DNA of 55,621 bases, from the NCBI GenBank assembly GCA_000934665.2, contig KZ538660.1:1-55621 (forward strand), given 5' to 3'. Positions 7,481-54,487 of the stretch are shown here, in pieces. The translations under genes were made by a program, and so were the position numbers. Source of the stretch: Catajapyx aquilonaris. Its lineage: Eukaryota. The notes under the pieces are model-generated. The model was not told the origin of the DNA. It did not search any database and saw only the letters and a program-made list of their open reading frames with translations. Within the stretch, counting starts at the first letter, position 1; each line of letters begins with the position of its first letter.

Positions 7481-8663
7481 TATCCCTGTACACCTTTTTG
7501 TATTATATGCTATACTGCTTTAAAAAAAAAATCATACCGCATAGTAATGTTTCCAGAACTAACATCGTCTATTTCAATTGAAAAAGAGATTTCATATATT
7601 CCCAATGACCAACTACAAAGACCTGCAAGTGTACCATGGAATTGCCTCTCTTTTATTGCGAAGCCCTCCAAAAAAAGACAACCGACACTGACCCCCGACT
7701 TCTCTCGCATGGAGGGCTTCCACCAAACCTCAACGTATCCTACCCAAAATCTGCGTGTTAAAAAAAGTTTTAATGTAAATAATTGTAATTAACCGCACAT
7801 TTAGGTGGAGCACGCCTGCTGTGGGATGAACGACCGAGCCTATGGAGGTGTTTGATGGACTTGTCGTGACGGAGTGGCGAGAAAATGATGCTGCCATGCC
7901 GGTGAGGTGGGGTAGTTTTTCTTGGCATATGCTGGGAGCCTTCCAGTTTTACCAGTCAAAATTGCACATACGTGTACTTCGACAATAACATACTAGCAGG
8001 TTGTTTATGCTACAAATGTATGGAGAAGTCCATTTATGAGAACCGAATGAAATTATTAAGGTGCCAAACCTTAATCCTGATCCTATAAGGGTCAGTTGTA
8101 TGGAAGAAAATTAGAAAAATATATCCGATTACGTATCGCTATTCACAATACATATTCTGACATAATTGGTGATTTCCTGTTTAATTTGCTTTCATAAAAC
8201 CGGCCCTTACACTGAAACATTCTTGGCTTGTGTAAATTTTGGCTGCGAGAGCTCGCCTCGGCAAATTCTATATCTGAGTGGTTTTGTCGGTGCATCAACT
8301 GTGCAGAGAAATATGACCTGCGGCCAATTTTCCTGAGTCTGTCCAGAAGGCTGTGCAGTACGGTACATGGCAAAGGTTAATAACCCTGAACAGGCGGTAC
8401 CTCGTCTCCAAGAAGTAAAATAAAACACATTAGGGAGTACGGTGGTCTTAGTGGTTATACCTCTAGCCAGTCAAGCGGGAACTTCGCTATAGGTCCGGTC
8501 TCTTTTCCGCTTTTCTAGAGAGGTGCACATTATTTGTAGCTATACTCCTTTCCCTGACCAGAAGGAAAGATTTGGTTTGAAGAAATTCCGAAATGAATCG
8601 AAAACTACCCATTACTCCATTTGGCATATTTCCCTTCTCAATATGACACATACACACATTGTA

Positions 8664-8774
8664 CAGTGCTGGACATATTAGCAGTCCCTAAATGTTAACT
8701 TAGTTGCCAGGTAACGCCAGCGCCGCCAATGCCGAAAAAGAAACATTTAGGGACTGCTAATATGTCCAGCACTG
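8664..8774. mobile_element. 111 bp Tc1/mariner-type MITE
   Basis: TA|CAGTGCTGGACATATTAGCAGTCCCTAAATGTT...AACATTTAGGGACTGCTAATATGTCCAGCACTG|TA; perfect 33 bp terminal inverted repeats (TIRs) and a TA TSD. Confidence 0.9.
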
Positions 8775-9381
8775 TACATGTTTATTTAAAAAATAAGTTT
8801 TATATGACCGACATTCCATGTTGATATTTCAGCAACAAATGCAACACTTCAAAAAGGCAAGGCACAAATTCGTTGAACACATTCTATGATAAATGTCTGC
8901 AAACACTCCAAGATGATGCCTTATACATTGCCTCAGTTAGCGACCTACAGCAAGTTTCCAATCAGCCCCAAACTTAGCCCATTCAAATACGGCGCTGGAG
9001 CACCTATACCTCCGGTAGCTGACGAAATTGCGTCACCAAATAACTTTTTCAATAACCGCGGAACCAATAACGTGCCCCTGAGCCTTCAAATTAGTGGAGA
9101 TGGGGTCGAGTTCTACCATATTCGGAACCTTCCATCGTCGCGTCGCGTCGGTTCCTCCCATTCCAGGTATTCGGTGCAGTGCGCAGCCACTTCAAGGCTC
9201 AGTCTCACCCGTGGTCTCACCTATTCCCCCATGATCAAGTCATACGAACAAAATGGCGCGGGCAATCCGAAATCAATCTGCAGCACGACCTGGATGGTCT
9301 GGGTTCTACAGACCACGTTTCTCATGGTTTGCAGGTCAAACATTATGCACTAAAAAATAATTAAGGTGGTTCCACACTTAC

Positions 9382-33286: not shown

Positions 33287-34480
33287 TTAATTTGCATAAG
33301 AGTACACCTGAGCCAAAACAAAATTAATGCACATGTTTGCTATTGGTTTAACTCAATGGTTGTAATGAACCTTTTTTTAAAAATAATTGATATTAAGGAG
33401 GTTGGCCCACCATTGCCTTTCAACCTCCAAGGATAGGGAAGGAAGGAAGCGGCTGTGGCCTATTATACAGACGCAACCCCGGAATTATCCTAGAAAGACC
33501 GTGGAAAACCATAGAAAACCACGGTCAGGGTTGCTGGCCCCGGGATTCGAACCCAGGACCTCCCGATTAGCAGTCGGATGCCCTATCCACTATGCCAACC
33601 TGCTTCGGTTCGTAATGAACCTGTGATATGACTCCTTTCCCGCTCCTTTCTCATTTTATGATATTGCAAAACCTAAAAGGTAGTGACTTCCCAATGAGTG
33701 CTTGATATCACCACCTGTCATCAGCATACTTCTTAAATAAATTCAACAAAAATTACCATTTCCTCCAGGTAACCGAAAACTGGGAAAGTTTCAGTCTGCA
33801 TAATGGAGCGAAATGGCCCCATGTGCAAAGGATTCTTTTTATCGCTGCAAAATGTTGGCCGTATATGTAAATTCATGATCATTCCCAAGCGTTTATAATG
33901 GACTTGTACAACGCACTTCCCAACCATGACTGCACCTTATTTGCTTCACAATGTTTGGTCAGCCCACTTTGGTAGCCTGATACAGTATCAAAAACCAATA
34001 CTGCAAATTCACACCAAATAGGAACACTACAGTAAAAACCTTTTCAAATAATTTACCTTTTCAGTAGGAGAGCACAACTTGGTGGGTGTGTGTGTGTAGC
34101 CAGCTGAAGTATCTAAAGACAGAAATGGGGGCGGGTCGAAGCAACAAAACACCAAGAAACCACAGCATGTGTATGAAGCATGTATCAGTACATACCAGAA
34201 ACGAAGAACGAAGTTGCAGGTGCTGCAGATTTGGTGTGTAGATACACTGTAGGCCCTGACGGCCTCTTAACCGGCGACACTGGTGTGCATTAGGTCACAA
34301 GCGCAATGATAGGGAAGAAAAGCATAAGAGAAGGAACAGATTCCACTTGCAGGTAGGAGGGTGCGTTTGGCACTGGCCTGGCAGCGAGAGAGGCTGGAGT
34401 TCTGGACAAACATGCACTACATCTGGCGGGAATGTCTAGTGCACGTGCGTGGCTGCCATTTTGAATCCGGACCACGCGCT
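33287..34480 (-). other. candidate spliced transcript (5' UTR exons of mub, a lncRNA, or a 63-aa smORF gene)
   Basis: A chain of canonical splice sites on the minus strand: donor 34196, exon 34112-34057, a 56 bp intron, exon 34000-33757, acceptor 33307. A YY1-like CAAAATGGCAGC sits at about 34452-34463. Confidence 0.45.
33373..33611 (-). mobile_element. insect-type tRNA-derived SINE
   Basis: B-box GGTTCGAATCC on the minus strand, a GGAAGGAAGCGGCTGTGGCCTA body, and an 11 bp TSD GTAATGAACCT at 33362 and 33612. Confidence 0.88.
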
Positions 34481-40844: not shown

Positions 40845-41177
40845 TAATCCTGGGTGGTGCTTTCACCCCCAAACGGGGGTATATCACACAGACCTTTATT
40901 TAGTCATATGTGTACATTTGGAACCTATTTTTTGAAGCGCCCGGGCCCACGGGCAGGATGACAGGAGGGGATGTGCAAAGTTCAGTGCGCGGACTGACAT
41001 TGGTACATTTTGTGAACTCCCCCGGGTGGATATGTCTATTGGAGATTCCACCTGAGACGAAGCCAGATGACCTATACTCTGCACGAGATGACGGGGGGTG
41101 TCTCCGGGCTGGGATCGAACCCGGGACCTTAACATCCGTGGGCGCGTACGTTACCGCAGCGCCACTCCGCCTCCCCC
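40845..41177 (-). mobile_element. tRNA-derived SINE, same family as 52745-53068
   Basis: Head GGGGGAGGCGGAGTGGCGCTGCGGTAACG...GGGTTCGATCCC; the body is colinear with the second copy. Confidence 0.85.
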
Positions 41178-41377
41178 ATTACAAAGCAGTAGTGCAAGTA
41201 GCTGCATTTTTTTCTAAAGGGATACCCAAACTTTTATCATCGCCTAGGTTTTTGCCGATTGATGCCTCAAGATTTCTCACCACTACTATTTATTCTTGTT
41301 TTGGGCCAATAATTACACTGGCAGCTGGAAGTGCGATAAATAAGAAACAGCCTCTGCCGTCCCAAGGTAAAACACAC

Positions 41378-43611: not shown

Positions 43612-44524
43612 TTAGACATATGTGGCCACCCACCCAACCTTTTTATTTGTAGGGAAGGCTGCAAAAAGATCAACTCCCACTCTTGCAGTGCATTCAGTGC
43701 CATCTGTATTGGGATAAACTAACAGGATCTGGCAAAGGTCACCTCATTCCCAGCCATTAATATCAGGATCATATCCTGCCACTTAGGCAACCACTGCATC
43801 AGCCGGAGTAGATCATTCTGTCGGCCACCTTCCCTACAAAAAAGCTGTTGGGTGGGTAGGTGGCCATGTTTGTCACAGGGAAATCAATATCTTGATCATC
43901 TATGATCTATGTCATTAACCTTAGCTCCCTTGACATTTTTCACCCCTACATTTTTGACTTGTTTTCAGCCAAGGAATACATTACCAACCAGACATGCTAG
44001 TTAGAAATACCCTGTGTGTAATTGGTCTTTTACACAATGAAATTTCATTAATCTTGGAGATTTTTAACTATTTCAACTAGGGCCTAACTAAAAAATATAC
44101 AGAGAGTTAATGAATTCAACCGACAAACTGCTAGGGGTAATAGAGTTGACCTAGACAAACATATTTCATATAGACATGGAAAGGGTGCGCTCAGAAGCGT
44201 CAGGCGAAAGGTGCTAGGCGAGCTGACTGTTTAGTTCCTAGTTGGCACACAGAAAACAACGCCACCTAGCAACTAAACAGCATAAGGATGAGGGTACAAA
44301 CCTCAATAAGACATTTATTGGAAAAACATTAAACCGTTTCTGCTGATAGGAAAAACCTCAAAAACTGTCACGGTATTAGGCTACTTGTAGCATTTCAAAT
44401 TAGCTGCTTATCCTTCCTCTTCACAGAAAATAGCAATGGCCATGGGCTATTTATAATAATGGATACCCCGTGACAGGCCTCCTTGGGCCTCTTAGGGGAT
44501 CATCTTTTACATATCCGACTTTAA

Positions 44525-45291
44525 CCCTAACAAGACGGGCGTCACATATGCTGTGACGCTGGCTTTAAAAAATTCTGCTGGCGAAACTATAGCGGTTTCC
44601 CACTATGTAACGTGGTTTCTGTGTGACTTTTTAAATTTTCTCTCGCGTAAAATATCGCGAGTTTTGGACTACAAAATCGTGCACAAATAAACCGGATTAA
44701 CCAGATTAACTTGAATGAAATCATCTTTTTGCGGCCGCTGAAAAAAAAAACATTAAAAAAAAACGACCTTGACCGGCAAATTTTCGGCATACATAGTTGC
44801 CCCCAAACCTCCTCAAGAGAATCCACCCTAAAATTAGTGCAAAAGATGATTTAATAGTTTTAAAATAAATAAATAGTGTTTGTAAATGCCAATTAGCAGC
44901 TGCCGGGCGTCTGCGCACTTCAACGCCGGTCTCTGTATGGCTCGAGGGGCGCATGCTCCGTGAGGTTTTTGAATAGCTGTGGCTCAAGGATGTTTAGACT
45001 CGTGAGTGTTTATCAACACAGCTTGCTTGACAGGCCTGTGCCGTAATTCATGCTATGTGTTTATGTACTGCTTTGTTCAGCGATGCCAAGGCTACATACA
45101 GATAATTTATTGTCAAGCAGGCAGAGTGACAAAAAATGGGAGAAGTCGCGAAACTTAACCCTCTACGCCACCTTGTTGTACATATGAGAGTTTCCACTGC
45201 ATATGAATGAGAGGAGGGTCCCAAGTCCCAAAGAAAGCGAATTTTTTGCAGATACTTGCAAAAACGCGTTAAACCACCCGTCTTATTAGGG
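44525..45291. mobile_element. piggyBac-like element, family A copy 2, inserted into a SINE
   Basis: TTAA|CCCTAACAAGACGGG...CCCGTCTTATTAGGG|TTAA. Confidence 0.9.
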
Positions 45292-45295
45292 TTAA

Positions 45296-45475
45296 TCATT
45301 GCCTGCGCTGTGATGGATTTTGATTGTGGGAGGAAACGGGAGAACCCTGAGAAAACCCACGCGAGCACGGAGAAAACCCATCAAAACTCCATCCACATAA
45401 GTGTCCTCCGTCCGACCCGGGGATCGAACTCGGGACCTCAGAGGTGGAAGAGGCGCTAACCACTCGGCCACCATG
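45296..45475 (-). mobile_element. tRNA-derived V-domain-like SINE, 5' half (3' tail at about 44452-44520)
   Basis: A-box TGGCCGAGTGG, B-box GAGTTCGATCC, core GCGTGGGTTTTCTCAGGGTTCTCCCGTTTCCTCCCAC. The tail matches 30168-30217. Confidence 0.85.
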
Positions 45476-45504
45476 TCGATGGGCTATTTATTTCAGTTCC
45501 ATAT

Positions 45505-46398
45505 GAGGCGCTTAGAACAAAAGTGGCCCTAGTCCAAAAAGCTCAAGTTGGGATAATTCACCTGCAAGTTTGGAAGGTCATAGAAAAAAGGGAAATCATA
45601 ATGATGTCTTCATCCATATTATGTCAGATTGGGAATCATTACAGGGCAGTCTTTTTTAGATATATTGCTACTGTAAAAAAAACATTGATTTATTGATAAA
45701 AAATCATATGTGACTTACACCATAATGATCCTACAGAATCATGGACTTACACCATTGTTGACTGGATGTAATACAATTGAATTAGGATATAATAGACTTC
45801 AAGGGACAGCGGAAATCAGTCTTGTTATAACCAAGGTCTGTTATAGCCGAATACACACGCCATTTATTATGGAAATATGTCGGGACCGTCCTTTCGAGTC
45901 TGTTATAGCCGAGGCTGTTATAACTGGTCTCAACTGTATTTATAAAATTTCCTTTGATCATTCCTCAATTTTAACAAAAATGATTTTAGTAAATATTAAT
46001 TTCAATCAGAAATTTAAGAGAAGGAAATTTTTGGCAAATACGAGTATAAAAAATTCGCAAATTCACAAAATAATTTTAAACATGGCAAAACTGACAGCCA
46101 CACACTTATTATTTGCCTTACACAATATTATTTTGTCCACAGAGGTGCTCCCAGAAATATCGCTTGCATCTTCGTCGGCCATCTTTAACAGCTGGTATGG
46201 GACTTACACCAGGATTGCTCCAAGGAGTAGGCAACTCTCCTTGGAGCATAAATGACATTATGTCATTTACTCCCCAAATGTACAACTTAGTACTTATACC
46301 ATTTTTTTTCACCAACTTGGAGTAGTTCTCTGAATGTGATGGCAGTCCTATCTCAAAAATGGTATTTTTGGACTTGCGCCACTTTTGTTCTAAGCCGC
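45505..46398 (-). mobile_element. Sola-like DNA transposon remnant, with a nested Tigger-like MITE at about 45774-45936
   Basis: TIRs GCTTAGAACAAAAGTGGC..AGTCCAAAAA / TTTTTGGACT..GCCACTTTTGTTCTAAGC. The minus-strand remnants LYIWGVND, WEHLCGQNN and LKFL resemble Sola YNFGVHD / SDNCGGQNKN / KFL..GH. Confidence 0.55.
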
Positions 46399-46656
46399 AA
46401 GCGGACTTTAGGTGCTAGGTGGCTCTGTTGTTGCCAGTTTACTGCGCTTCGCGCCGTTGTTTACTATCTGCACATCACCTAGTAACTCAATAGTTCGTGC
46501 GTCTGAGCGCACCCGTTCCTCGTCTATGAACCCCCTCTAGATGGAGTTTCTGGACACGGGTTCCTATGTGAAATATGTTTGTCTTGGTCCCCTCTATTAC
46601 CCCCTACATGCTTGTCGTTTGAATTCATTTACACCCTGTATAAAGAGCCTCTATGC

Positions 46657-46900: not shown

Positions 46901-47231
46901 GGGGCCGTCCAGACGGGCTGACCTTAGCCGCGGCCGGCACCGCCACCGGCCCCGGCACCGGCTTGCGGAGCCACGGCTGGCCACGGTACCCGTTCAGACG
47001 GGCACATATTTTAATAATAAGTAATAGTGGCCGGTAGTCATGGCAGCGACAAAAAACAAGTGACGCGCAGTATCCGTCGCCGAGGCCAAGCCGTGGCCAA
47101 GCAGCGAGCCAACTTCCAGGAAGTCGGCCAACTTGGCCGACTTCTGAGCCGTGGCCGTTGCCGTGTGAACCGTCGCGGCCTCGACCAGCCGCGGCTGGCC
47201 GCGGCTAAGGTCGGCCCGTCTGGACGGCCCC
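46901..47231. mobile_element. GC-rich Harbinger-like MITE
   Basis: TTT|GGGGCCGTCCAGACGGGC.GACCTTAGCCGCGGCC...GGCCGCGGCTAAGGTC.GCCCGTCTGGACGGCCCC|TTT. Confidence 0.85.
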
Positions 47232-47337: not shown

Positions 47338-49173
47338 TTCTCTGCTTCATATGCTGCCAACTTATTCAGTTCCTCCACACGACGCTCTATGCGCATATTA
47401 TGCCACCTCCGGTTCTCATCTATCTGGTCCCTCAAAGCTTGTCCATACTGCAGGCCATTCTTCCTTCTGCAGTCTCTACTCTCTTCAGAGTATTTCATGT
47501 CAGCTGCATACTTGGAAAGGATCTGAACGAAACCACATTTATTTGTAACATGGACTGCTGCAAATCACAGTATTCTCACCAGCCGGTGATTCCTCTCTTC
47601 AGCTAGTTTTGCCTTGTGCCTGTTGTTAGCTTCTCGCTCCAGATTCTCATAGTAGGAGCGAATCACCAGCTCTTTATGACCTTTGGCCCTGACTGCAGCA
47701 CATAAATCCTTTTCCTTGTCCAACATTTCTTTTTGGAACACGTTCATCCTCTCCTTGGTTAACTGATCTGCCCTAAATTTCGCCTAACAAAGAATATAAT
47801 TGAGTCTCTGCATGGATAAGGCAAGTACAGTGTACTTACTTCTTCTTCTGCTTGCCTCTGTACGGCCAACAGGTAGGTCCTTTGCCGTGCTGCTTGAGAT
47901 TGGCGCAATTTTTCTGGGCGAAGGTTTTCCTTCTTCTCCAGTTCTTTATGGTACTCAACAATTTTCCTACAAACAAATCATTATAGATGACGGTGAAGGC
48001 AGTTAAGAGTAACATTCACCTGTCTATCTCTTCTTCTTCCAAAGCTTTCTTCATGCTCTGATTCTCAATGCATTTCAAATCATCTTCCAGGCACTGCCTC
48101 ACAAAACCTTGTCCTTCCAGCTTAGTTTGCAGGGCACTAAAGTGAGGAAGAGAATCAGGAGAATTCAAAATTATTTGATCCAGACAACTCACTCTCGTTT
48201 CTCCTGCTGATATTTCTTTTGTAGAGTATTATGAATGTCTCTATCAGTTATAAGATGATGTTCTCGTTCAAGTCGCTTTTGTTCACTGTTAGCAAAGCAC
48301 TGTAGGTCTAGAGCACTGTGATAATCCAAGCGCCTCAACAGCATATTTACCCTTTCCTCAGCCTTCTCTCGCTGATAATTTCTATTATATTCTTCTCGGT
48401 CTATACCAGCTTGCACTTTTGCCCTCTGAAATACAAGGTGTTAGTACACAAATGTCAACAGAACTTGTGCATTCAACAAGTACCCGTTCCTCCTCCCTCT
48501 TGGCCTCATCTTGAATTAGAATCATTTGGTTCATCTTGTACACTGTTGTCTCTCTCAGTTGTCGATCCAAGGAGCGTAGATCTTGCTCATGAGTATGTAC
48601 CCTGGAAAAAGCTAGTGACAAAAGAGCAGCCAGTGAAAGCCTGAATGAATGGAACATACCAAGATAGTTTCCTGCTTTGTTCACGAATGGCCTCCTTCTT
48701 TATATTTGCAGCTAGTTGGCTCTCAAGCCGAAGTTGAGATTCATACAATTTGGACTTTGTCTTCCGCTAAATTACAAATTACAAGTTAAAACAGGTCATG
48801 CAAAAGCTCTTACTGTTCACTGTACATCATAAATATATTTGTCCAACGTGGATTCTAAATCCTCCAAGATTGGGTGTCGCAGCATGTCTGAAAAGACTCC
48901 ACGTTGCATAACCTCTTCCAAATAAGCACGCTTGTGGTCCGTCATCTTCCACTTTTCTAATGTCCTTGATGCGTCCAAATCAGCCTGCTCATCTTCATGC
49001 AGTTTCTGATAATACAGTTCACCTGTCTGCAAAATTTCAAGAATACCGATTAGTCACATAGGGTAACTTCTGGTGCACTGGTACATGTGACAATCACACT
49101 CCTGTTTTAAAAAAAAATTAACTTTCAGCAACCTCCAACTCACCCTAAACGGAGTTTTATCCGGGACTGGCAT
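47338..49173 (-). CDS. MNS1: MNS1 ortholog (axonemal microtubule inner coiled-coil protein), coding exons 1-9
   Basis: GT-AG, phase-consistent exons: 49173-49144, 49026-48826, 48766-48660, 48601-48484, 48425-48193, 48136-48020, 47966-47840, 47783-47580, 47522-47338. With exon 10 the total is 1473 nt, or 490 aa. The motifs YYQKLH, DLRSLDRQLRETTVYK, EEEIDRKIVEY and ILSKYAAD are colinear with recalled human MNS1 YCKKLH, ELRELEKKLKAAYMNK, EEENRKIIEF and MLAKFAED. The exon 2 donor is the least certain. A non-coding exon probably ends at 49425. Confidence 0.88.
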
Positions 49174-49556
49174 CTGACCTCTTATAACAGCAACTGGAAC
49201 TTAGTTTACCTGAAAGTAAAACCACATGAAAGGCAACATGAAATCTGGCGGTGACAACAACAGCAGCAGTACTACAGTGAAACGACTGAAACCCAAGGTG
49301 AAACCACTCTACAGCAGACCACACTAATTGTCCACTTCAGAAAAATTTCGTTCTATTCCTTCCTTTCGCTTTTCTCACAGCCCACACCTCCCTCACATTG
49401 CAACCCTCTCCACCAGCAGCTTACCGGGAGTTCTTTTGTAACAGTCTGGATGCAGCCTTGTAAAATGTTTTGTAAAGAACGACACCAACACGTCTACACC
49501 CAACGAAGCGGCGGCAGGATTTCTACTATCAACTACCAACTGCCAAAACCAGCGAT

Positions 49557-49569
49557 GTTACCAGGTGAC
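49557..49569. promoter_or_regulatory. RFX X-box in the MNS1/TUBE1 bidirectional promoter
   Basis: GTTACCAGGTGAC (minus strand GTCACC-T-GGTAAC) fits GTNRCC(N0-3)RGYAAC and lies between two divergent cilia/centriole genes. Confidence 0.7.
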
Positions 49570-49858
49570 CGGCTCTCCAAAACAACAATCATTAATTATT
49601 TAGTTTAACACCGTTGCATATGTAATAAAATATTAAAAAATATAATTTACAAATTTAGTCACGTTTCCGCTTCTAAATAGCGTAACAGTAACTTGACATT
49701 TTCCCAGAAAGCTTTGCGTGCGCGGGAATCTGTTACTGTGCCACCAGCACCCGGTACTACCTAGGGCACCATGAGGTGTCCTGTTGGCTGTTGGTGCACC
49801 TTCGGCCACTAGCTGTGTGTTATTCCTAGTCGGTGCTAGTCTTTGCAGATGTTCTAAG

Positions 49859-50309
49859 ATGCCGTCGGAAATCGTTATTATTCAAGGTAACCTATGAGAG
49901 TTAAGACAGAGGCTCAGGTTTCATGTTTTATTGTTGGCTTCCAGTGGGTCAGTGTGGGAACCAGGTTGGGGCACGGTTCTGGCTGGCGGCCATGAGGGAG
50001 CTAGGGATTAGAATCCCAGGTGAGAAGACTGAGAAGTCAAAAAAAGTGCAGACAGACCAGGATGCATTGCAGAGCTTGTTCACCTATGAGAAGGCAGCTA
50101 AGACTGGCAGGTCGACGGAGCTGAGGGCCAGGGTAAGCTGGATGGAATCATCCTTGGGTTCGAGTTGGATTTATCTGGATGTTCCATTTTTAGGCTATCT
50201 TGATTGATATGGAAGAAGGTGTTGTGTCCAGAGTGTTGCGCAGCCCTATTGGGTACTTGTTTGATGAGACGCAGTTAGTGACAGCAGCTTCAGGATCAGG
50301 AAATAATTG
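49859..50309 (+). CDS. TUBE1: epsilon-tubulin, exons 1-3
   Basis: Exons 49859-49886, 49945-50132 and 50194-50309 give MPSEIVIIQVGQCGNQVGARFWLAAMRE...LRARAILIDMEEGVVSRVLRSPIGYLFDETQLVTAASGSGNNW. LIDMEEGVV and SGSGNNWAVGH are epsilon-diagnostic. Confidence 0.93.
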
Positions 50310-50527
50310 GTGAGGACTGATTTCATAGGACGAGGCCTACAAGAGCCAGTCACACGAGGTTGGATTCATTAAAATTATCAGAGTTTTAATGTAGCCAATC
50401 CTATCTGTGTGAACAATAAGGTATTTTTTTCTGTCAAATGTAGCTCAGGTGTAGGATTAAGAATCTTATATTGTAAATGTATCTGACCTGGTATAACTGG
50501 CGTGAAAGGAAATACCAGATGAGTGTA

Positions 50528-50698
50528 CAGTGTCAGAATTAATCGAGGCATTCGAGGCACTGGTGGCTAGCGACATTTTCCGAATCGGCAGAAGAAGAAA
50601 TCGAAGATAAGGATTCTGCAAGCCGGGCGAGCAAGATTCCTTCTTCTGCCGATTCGGAAAATGTCGTTAGCAGTATGCTTCGATTTAGTCCAACACTG
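50528..50698. mobile_element. Tc1-type palindromic MITE
   Basis: TA|CAGTGT...ACACTG|TA, with the strong inner stem CGACATTTTCCGAATCGGCAGAAGAAG / CTTCTTCTGCCGATTCGGAAAATGTCG. Confidence 0.8.
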
Positions 50699-50748
50699 TA
50701 CAATGTAATGTTTGGAAAAAAAGATGGTGACCGATTTTTGCTGTCTTA

Positions 50749-51157
50749 GGCCAAACGCAAATAGGCAACTTGGAGTATTTGTTGTATTTCCAAGTATCAC
50801 ATTTTCCCACTAGACAGCAGGTGTATTGTGGCAATTTGGGAGCAACATACTGTCATTCAGACAGCACATGTAGGATTTTTTGCCATGGCTGGGGTAAATG
50901 CAATGCACTTCGTGAGAAACAGTCCAGAGAAACAAGGCAAGGTAGGGGTCAGGCCAGGCTTAGGATTTTATGGCACTATGAGGAGAGAGTCTACACTAAT
51001 CATGAAAGTTTGAAATGCCTCCAGGTTGCCTGCAAGTTTCATGCATGTAATTAACATGGCAACTTGCATGTGAAGTTTCCCAGCACATGCGCTGTTTTCA
51101 TCCTGGCAGGTTGCTCAGGCAACAAGCTGATCCCAAATTGTCTGTTTGCACCTTGCC
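50749..51157. mobile_element. degenerate Harbinger-like MITE
   Basis: TTA|GGCCAAACGCAAATAGGCAA...TTGTCTGTTTGCACCTTGCC|TTA. Confidence 0.55.
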
Positions 51158-51635
51158 TTAGGGGCAGTCAACAGGTTCTTGGACAATGCTGCTGTTGAGA
51201 AAGCTCAAATATTTTCTTAGTGCTGACTTTAGGAATGATTTTGTTGAGCCCATGAGCAGACTGTTTATTTAAGTCATGCACCCTACATGCAGCATGATGC
51301 TAGAATATCACATTAGTGCATATTGCAAAAATTTCATTTTCAACCAGACCTTAGGGATACAAAAGGCCATTTAACATTTTGGTCCAGGACTGCTAAGTAC
51401 AAGTAAAATGAAGTGGTCACAATCAGTGGGGCTTGGAGCAACTTACTACTGGCGATCAGAGGTCCTTTTGCATAGCTAATTGCCAGTGGTTACACCTGAA
51501 TTGATAACTGCTGAGTGTTAGCTGGTAATTGCGATTTAAATGGTTTCTTGTGGTGGAACCACTGCCAGTTAGTTTGACATTCAAAATTCACGCCATAGAG
51601 TGCTTGCTGATTTCTGAGTATTTTTTTCCTATTAA

Positions 51636-52743: not shown

Positions 52744-53371
52744 GTCTGGGGTAGTGCTTGACTTCATCTGAGGTATGCACCACGGACCTTTATTTATTAT
52801 GTCAAGTAAATTGGAGCCTTACGTAAAGCCCGGGCCCATGGGCAGGATGACAGGAGGGGATGTGCAAGGTGCAGAGCAATGTCTTATCCATGGCCATTTT
52901 TAGTGAACTCCCCCGGGTGGTTTAGTCTGTGGAAATACCACCCGAGACGAAGCCAGAGGTGACCCTGAACTCTGCATGAGATGAAGGGGTTGTCCCCGGG
53001 TTGGGATCGAACCCGGGACCTTAACATCCGTGGGCACATACGTTACCGCAGCACCACTCCGCCTCCCCTCTCGCAAAGTACAACGATTTCAGCAAATTCA
53101 TCTGGCCAGGTTCTCAAGGTTGTTGCTCCGTATATTTTAGCGTATTTCATAATTAAATCAGCCTAACAGTTGGTCAGTAGTACTCTAATTTCGAGTTTTT
53201 AAGGCGGCCTTTTTGGAAATTAATTTAGAGACTTCTAGAGGAGTAAAATTGTTTGCAACACATTAATAGTGTTTTCCATGAATTGGTAAATATAGCTGTT
53301 ATTAATAATTATCTTTAGAGTAGGCGTAAGCAGAAAACTAGGCGTTTTTGGCCTAGCTAGTAGCGAAGGGG
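51636..53371. mobile_element. piggyBac-like MITE, family B copy 2
   Basis: TTAA|CCCCTTCGCTAC...GTAGCGAAGGGG|TTAA; homologous to 41593-43194. Confidence 0.9.
52054..53068 (-). mobile_element. SINE (53068-52745) plus a LINE 3' fragment (about 52675-52130) within a single 15 bp TSD
   Basis: TSD TCTCGCAAAGTACAA at 52039 and 53069. (AAT)n occurs at 52052-52090 and 52676-52742, and (AAC)n at about 52091-52125. Confidence 0.85.
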
Positions 53372-54298: not shown

Positions 54299-54487
54299 GG
54301 CAGTCGGCCATCTGCAGTATGGCAGACACTTTCGTAAGAAAATAGCTAACTCATTTCATAGAGTCACTGAAAAATGTCCTCATTTGGAGGGCTTCCTCAT
54401 CCTGCATTCCCTAGGAGGTGGTACAGGTTCGGGCCTGGGAACATCTGTCCTTGATATTCTTGAAGAAGACTATCCTTTGGTTCCAAG
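54299..54487 (+). CDS. TUBE1: epsilon-tubulin, exon 4 (gene continues beyond the window)
   Basis: tttcag|G, in phase with exon 3: (W)AVGHLQYGRHFRKKIANSFHRVTEKCPHLEGFLILHSLGGGTGSGLGTSVLDILEEDYPLVPR|gt. Contains the tubulin GGGTGSG signature. Confidence 0.93.

Follow-up and report, generated by a model that had tools for sequence, protein, structure and literature searches.

The window analysed here is the 55,621-nt stretch of the Catajapyx aquilonaris contig KZ538660.1 (GCA_000934665.2, positions 1–55,621, forward strand), and the region in question is a short interval between an epsilon-tubulin gene on the plus strand and a coiled-coil gene on the minus strand, which contains a site (an X-box) of the type bound by RFX transcription factors. 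A sequence-only reading of the window had named the minus-strand gene MNS1 and had placed the two genes head to head around a single X-box, with their ATG codons ~0.7 kb apart. The head-to-head layout is real: the start codons are at 49173 (minus strand) and 49859 (plus strand), with 685 bp in between, and spliced contigs are found on either side. The coordinates of all features are collected in Table 1.

The two divergent genes

That the plus-strand gene encodes epsilon-tubulin is borne out by its family match, by its best named relatives and by colinearity. Exon 4 matches the Pfam Tubulin family PF00091 with an E value of 1.4e-13 (52 bits, cut-off 33), and the homology search with this exon gave eight matches, the best named of which, from Osmia bees, carry the label 'tubulin epsilon chain' and are 56% identical, as compared with 41–42% for beta-tubulin. 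Overall, the identity ranges from 54 to 56% for the Osmia epsilon chain and from about 38 to 42% for beta-tubulin, and exons 2, 3 and 4 are colinear with residues 9–188 of the bee protein (tblastn of the stored matches). Judged by identity over these first ~188 residues, after which the gene leaves the window, the product is closer to epsilon-tubulin than to the other tubulin classes. Epsilon-tubulin has been linked to centriolar triplets (PMC5653238, PMC11896610). The tubulin contig is 272 nt long and has 86–88 nt ahead of its exon-2 piece, which starts at 49943; the depth in the bin 49613–49943 fits ~87 nt, and the 5′ end of the contig therefore lies near 49800. We also observed a mini upstream open reading frame of two codons (ATG TTC TAA) at 49849–49857, ending one base short of the epsilon-tubulin ATG.

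The minus-strand gene is covered by a contig of 1804 nt from a public run whose kind is unrecorded. This contig matches the window with zero mismatches and skips nine introns, all of them CT..AC on the plus strand and thus GT..AG for the minus gene, and because of these nine skipped introns we treated the run as transcript-derived. Eight of the nine (53–117 nt) agree with the introns predicted beforehand from the sequence. The ninth (49210–49424) lies upstream of the ATG, so that this gene has a non-coding first exon; the bin depth places ~85 nt of the contig within 49282–49612. Behind the ATG exon there are eight further coding exons (47338..49026), separated by introns of 53–59 nt; the one between coding exons 8 and 9 is 57 nt long, in frame, and contains a stop codon. 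When joined, the coding exons give a frame of 1322 nt that runs through 440 codons with no stop and has not closed at its 3′ end; E, R, L and K abound in the 440-residue product.

The 3′ part of this gene is less well defined, since 364 of the 1804 nt of the contig lie beyond 47337 and are unplaced. An open stretch behind an AG acceptor (46408–46534) keeps the frame and would end the gene at 482 residues, and its start resembles what we take to be the C-terminal part of TPH-family proteins. This last exon is a guess, as an unspliced continuation of the contig would run into a bin that has no cover. Inserted in the intron behind exon 9 is a GC-rich element (46901–47231) whose 38-nt terminal inverted repeats match at 95% and which resembles a miniature inverted-repeat transposable element (MITE).

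Exon 9 (47338–47522) is the one of the nine coding exons that matches Pfam TPH (PF13868), at profile positions 265–326 of 352 with E values of 2e-4 to 1e-3; the other eight match no relevant Pfam family. The language-model look-alikes of exon 5 fall in clusters of which a minority of members (12–23%) carry RIB43A, CFAP141 or TPH, and the recorded taxa of the TPH cluster are commonest in arthropods; with scores of 0.90–0.92, these look-alikes are a lead only. A word-index protein search with exons 5 and 9 returned 14 and 17 candidates, none of which scored and none of which was MNS1. Exon 8 was run in full with HMMER against 1.84 billion representatives, and the sole match was P0009, a low-complexity Kelch-like sequence, and not MNS1. 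When the PDB was queried by sequence, neither exons 2, 5, 8 and 9 nor the candidate last exon brought up a cilia protein or MNS1, and the atlas search with exon 8 gave no usable match. All these queries were single unspliced exons of 35–77 coiled-coil residues with low signal, too short for any TPH family, so that the blank searches are weak and uninformative.

Thus, the name MNS1 was not confirmed, the sole family signal being the sub-threshold TPH match on exon 9, and the gene may still be MNS1. A safe description from its sequence is that of a putative TPH-type coiled-coil gene of roughly 440–480 residues. The TPH family includes MNS1, CFAP45, CFAP53, CFAP210 and trichoplein, all of them axonemal or centrosomal, and the assignment of both genes of the pair to the cilia or centriole type is supported. 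MNS1 itself is a doublet inner protein (PMC12842877).

The intergenic site and its surroundings

The promoter interval is considerably shorter than the distance between the two ATG codons. According to the contigs of one public run, the minus transcript reaches at least ~49505 and the tubulin transcript reaches at least back to ~49800, so that, with the 5′ untranslated exon and intron of the minus gene and the end of the tubulin contig taken into account, the untranscribed gap between them is ~295 bp at most. The earlier figure of 0.7 kb is therefore right for the ATG distance and not for the transcript-based gap. The contigs give minimum extents of the transcripts and do not fix the true start sites. 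A bidirectional promoter is usually defined as one whose divergent start sites are separated by less than 1 kb, and the two ends seen here, ~49505 on the minus strand and ~49800 on the plus strand, fall within this distance. Both transcripts are present as contigs in the one run, an occurrence that says nothing about co-regulation.

The X-box at 49557–49569 lies ~50 bp upstream of exon 1 of the minus gene and ~230 bp upstream of exon 1 of the tubulin gene, a distance four to five times shorter on the minus-gene side. The centre of the promoter contains an AT-rich stretch (49583–49660). Closer to the tubulin gene there is a GCGGGAA core (Table 1), which we take to be E2F-like; a gene for centriole duplication would be a fitting target of E2F-type control.

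The 13-bp site reads GTTACCAGGTGAC on the plus strand. Read on the minus strand, it agrees with the classical consensus for RFX, GTNRCC N0-3 RGYAAC, the spacer being 1 nt long, and on the plus strand its half GTTACC matches the RFX monomer motif GTTRCY perfectly. Both the consensus and the monomer motif are taken as quoted in PMC10530576. The site also fits RTNRCC N1-3 RGYAAC, the least degenerate pattern of a Drosophila screen in which palindromic X-boxes were over-represented among the dRFX targets (PMC2375033). The description 'consensus X-box' thus holds for the classical consensus and fails for the 14-bp ciliary one: the ciliary forms GTHNYY AT RRNAAC and GTHNYY NN RRNAAC have one and seven sites in the window, and the promoter site is not among them. 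Two weaker X-box-like words that had been proposed at 49732 and 49757 were returned by none of the five consensus sets scanned.

Matches of this kind are rare. GTNRCC N0-3 RGYAAC has three sites in the window as compared with 0.53 expected (60 Markov-1 sequences), and the probability of at least one such site is about 0.003 in 296 bp and about 0.007 in 686 bp. The 1-nt-spacer form gives three strand matches vs 0.07 expected, a number reached in none of 100 shuffles. As a sequence match, the RFX-type promoter site is real and is unlikely to have arisen by chance. Functional human X-boxes lie mostly within −500 to +500 of start sites, the 'robust' window (PMC5838959), and the promoter site is within these limits when judged by the contig 5′ ends.

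The X-box in the promoter is also not the single one at this gene pair, as had been claimed, since intron 3 of the tubulin gene contains a second strict X-box together with two half-sites (at 51025 and 51058). This 14-bp site at 51110 is the more canonical one and fits the GTHNYY NN RRNAAC form. The stretch 50971–51170 is unique within the window and is the only one with at least three half-sites within 150 bp, which makes it a candidate intronic enhancer. A forkhead-type word, TGTTTGC, is found at 51143, 20 bp from the intronic X-box; forkhead words are frequent in the window (3.8 per kb). The intronic X-box is ~1.3 kb downstream of tubulin exon 1, inside the 'permissive' window of −2300 to +1400 given for human RFX targets (PMC5838959). 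The presence of two strict X-boxes within 1.6 kb strengthens the case for RFX input and weakens that for a single X-box.

Table 1. Positions of the two genes and of the candidate regulatory sites in the window
Feature	Position	Strand	Remarks
Candidate last exon, minus gene	46408-46534	-	Open stretch behind AG acceptor; keeps frame; gene would end at 482 residues
Coding exons after the ATG exon, minus gene (last four)	48020-48136, 47840-47966, 47580-47783, 47338-47522	-	Contig joints
Coding exons after the ATG exon, minus gene (first four)	48826-49026, 48660-48766, 48484-48601, 48193-48425	-	Contig joints
Exon 2, minus gene	49144..49209	-	ATG 49173, 10 codons, then donor GTGAGT
Intron in 5′ untranslated region, minus gene, 215 nt	49210..49424	-	GT at 49424-49423, AG at 49211-49210
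Non-coding exon 1, minus gene	49425..49505	-	5′ limit is a minimum; joint 49205->49421 (cut +4)
Imperfect-palindrome X-box, GTTACCAGGTGAC on plus strand	49557..49569	.	GTCACC-T-GGTAAC on minus strand
GCGGGAA, E2F-like core	49722-49728		~75 bp upstream of tubulin contig 5′ end; 8 such cores in 55.6 kb
Exon 1, epsilon-tubulin	49800..49886	+	5′ limit is a minimum; ATG 49859
Exon 2, epsilon-tubulin	49945..50132	+	GQCGNQ nucleotide-binding start
Exon 3, epsilon-tubulin	50194..50309	+	tblastn
More canonical 14-bp X-box, tubulin intron 3	51110..51123	.	GTTGCC-TG-AGCAAC on minus strand
Exon 4, epsilon-tubulin	54299..54487	+	GGGTGSG loop; Pfam Tubulin

The interval and its flanks (49100–49950) are single-copy within the window, with chance matches of 12–27 nt only (blastn), in keeping with the earlier statement that no transposon is found in the gap. 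Outside the gap, the window carries repeats that resemble short interspersed nuclear elements (SINEs) or MITEs among short spliced genes, and none of nine long open reading frames tested elsewhere in the window contains a Pfam family. The label 'TE-saturated' (saturated with transposable elements) given to the window therefore stands for short non-autonomous repeats and finds no counterpart in the long open reading frames.

Some of these repeats were observed in their own right. A perfect palindromic X-box, GTTGCCAGGTAAC, occupies 8703–8715, in the middle of an inverted repeat of 119 bp (8660–8778) that is foldback- or MITE-like and lies far from any identified gene; if multi-copy in the genome, this element could scatter RFX sites. 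The segments 41094–41186 and 52986–53078 are 89%-identical repeat copies that contain a tRNA T-arm in reverse complement, and are probably tRNA-derived SINEs, for which ARAGORN made no call. An intact-looking tRNA-Ser(GCT) was called at 33532–33603. At 44317–45640, 46303–46633 and 50275–50936, the summed contig depth reaches ~300 vs 14 for the minus gene, and many of the contigs join across these stretches or continue unlike the window, which suggests transcribed multi-copy repeats.

Weighing the promoter readings

We tentatively read the interval as a compact bidirectional promoter in which RFX acts through the 13-mer, and would put the chances of this reading a little short of even. An RFX dimer would bind the 13-bp imperfect palindrome in ciliated or flagellated cells and, once bound, would turn on at least the nearer, minus-strand gene. 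The tubulin gene would probably get RFX input too, through the same promoter site, through the intron-3 cluster of X-box and half-sites, or through both; because the palindrome has no orientation, the promoter site could serve tubulin as well.

Several points weigh against this reading. As the contigs do not fix the start sites, the X-box could sit inside a longer 5′ untranslated region. The putative cilia or MNS1 role of the minus gene draws on a domain match of 18–20 bits on exon 9, below the curated cut-off of 27. The promoter site has a spacer of 1 nt rather than the usual 2, its GTCACC half deviates from the GTTRCY monomer motif, and it was not among the sites returned for the 14-bp patterns GTHNYYATRRNAAC and GTHNYYNNRRNAAC; moreover, no forkhead word is found within 60 bp of it. 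In Drosophila, sensory cilia require Rfx and sperm flagella do not; if the host is an insect, RFX control may by analogy matter in only a few cell types. The loose Drosophila-type pattern GYTNYY N1-3 RRNRAC has 19 sites in the window vs 18.0 expected, with no enrichment, in accord with the conclusion from Drosophila that a single-species X-box is not predictive: an X-box upstream of one gene, when considered without conservation, did not predict dRFX dependence (PMC2375033).

Some of these same points would be expected if the motif were a chance match or a non-RFX site, the adjacency a neutral rearrangement accident, and each gene equipped with its own core promoter. The non-canonical spacer, the imperfect half-site and the unenriched degenerate consensus all suit this account, as do some post-hoc selection in scanning the whole 55-kb window and the position of one of the three consensus sites (8703) in a palindromic repeat-like element without cilia context. 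The palindrome might bind another factor; its GGTCAC core, for example, resembles the insect core-promoter 'motif 1'. We nevertheless regard a chance or non-RFX origin as doubtful, because the probability of a strict site in exactly this gap is about 0.003–0.007, because a second strict site and the only half-site cluster of the window occur within 1.6 kb at the same gene pair, and because both genes belong to classes that are typically RFX-controlled. Unlikely to a similar degree is the strict form of the original proposal, that the one X-box is a shared element coupling the two genes, with basal-body and axoneme parts co-expressed. The palindrome does lie between both first exons, ~50 and ~230 bp away, in a gap of less than 300 bp, and both transcripts occur in one run; however, such co-occurrence is silent on co-regulation, the X-box is closer to the minus gene by a factor of four to five, and the tubulin gene has candidates of its own in the E2F-like core at 49722 and the intronic cluster at 51025–51123.

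A further alternative concerns the identity of the minus-strand gene, which could be another TPH-domain protein of the CFAP45, CFAP53, CFAP210 or trichoplein type; in that case the pairing would be misnamed and the reading of the promoter would stay as it is. This is a substantial possibility, although we lean somewhat away from it. No search gave MNS1, the sole family signal comes from one exon, and Pfam TPH is common to several ciliary and centrosomal families. On the other side, the blank searches are uninformative with such short queries, and the length of 440 residues (482 with the candidate last exon) and the all-coiled-coil make-up suit MNS1, which has ~495 residues. The most far-reaching interpretation, that an MNS1-like gene and epsilon-tubulin form a lineage-wide conserved head-to-head unit with a promoter X-box, an intronic RFX/forkhead enhancer and a linkage maintained by selection, we consider highly improbable; if true, the supply of the centriole-triplet tubulin would be tied to the supply of an axonemal inner protein.

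Relation to known RFX systems

That X-boxes control cilia genes is well known, as are head-to-head promoters, and the present locus adds another X-box promoter, from a single genome. Should both the pairing and the X-box prove to be conserved, it would be a natural case of two cilium-building genes on one RFX-bound promoter, and could serve as a compact element with which to drive two reporters together in ciliated cells. The locus could also hint at a place for epsilon-tubulin in the RFX regulon. In the literature searched, no paper was found stating that epsilon-tubulin belongs to this regulon; TUBE1 is not in the main text of the RFX-target papers searched or in PMC10530576, and supplementary target lists may include it. 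MNS1, X-box and RFX were not found together in one paper, and, judged by titles and abstract starts, epsilon-tubulin and MNS1 occur together only in sperm-biology reviews.

Human MNS1 and TUBE1 are on different chromosomes. Among the 39 tubulin loci of at most 53% identity found in a metagenome scan with tubulin exon 4, none has a counterpart of the minus-strand gene, and the genome-contig scan with exon 5 of the minus gene found no match. In Xenopus, mns1 is among the Rfx2-controlled genes for cilia beating (PMC3889689). The present locus is alike in having a coiled-coil gene of putative TPH type with an RFX-type promoter site, and differs from the vertebrate mns1 locus in the neighbouring gene.

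The RFX/X-box ciliary promoters of C. elegans (DAF-19), Drosophila (dRfx) and vertebrates (RFX2/3) offer the closest general comparison. The site described here resembles theirs as a palindrome that fits GTNRCC N0-3 RGYAAC, in containing one perfect GTTRCY half, and in its position ~50–230 bp from the first exons of two genes of cilia or centriole type; it differs in that their usual spacer is 2 nt and here it is 1 nt, and in that GTHNYY AT RRNAAC is not fitted. The motile-cilia modules that combine RFX with a forkhead factor (FOXJ1, PMC5245798; or Fd3F) are resembled by intron 3, which has a full X-box and two half-sites with a forkhead-type word at a distance of 20 bp, although forkhead words are common in this window, none is near the promoter X-box, and the intron-3 cluster is putative.

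The core promoters of multiciliated cells in Xenopus are X-box-enriched, and one probable bidirectional promoter has been described there, at Cep290 (PMC5245798). Like bidirectional promoters in general, the interval between the two Catajapyx genes has divergent orientation, a gap of at most ~295 bp and an AT-rich centre, features that, taken from sequence and contigs, mark it as a putative member of this class.

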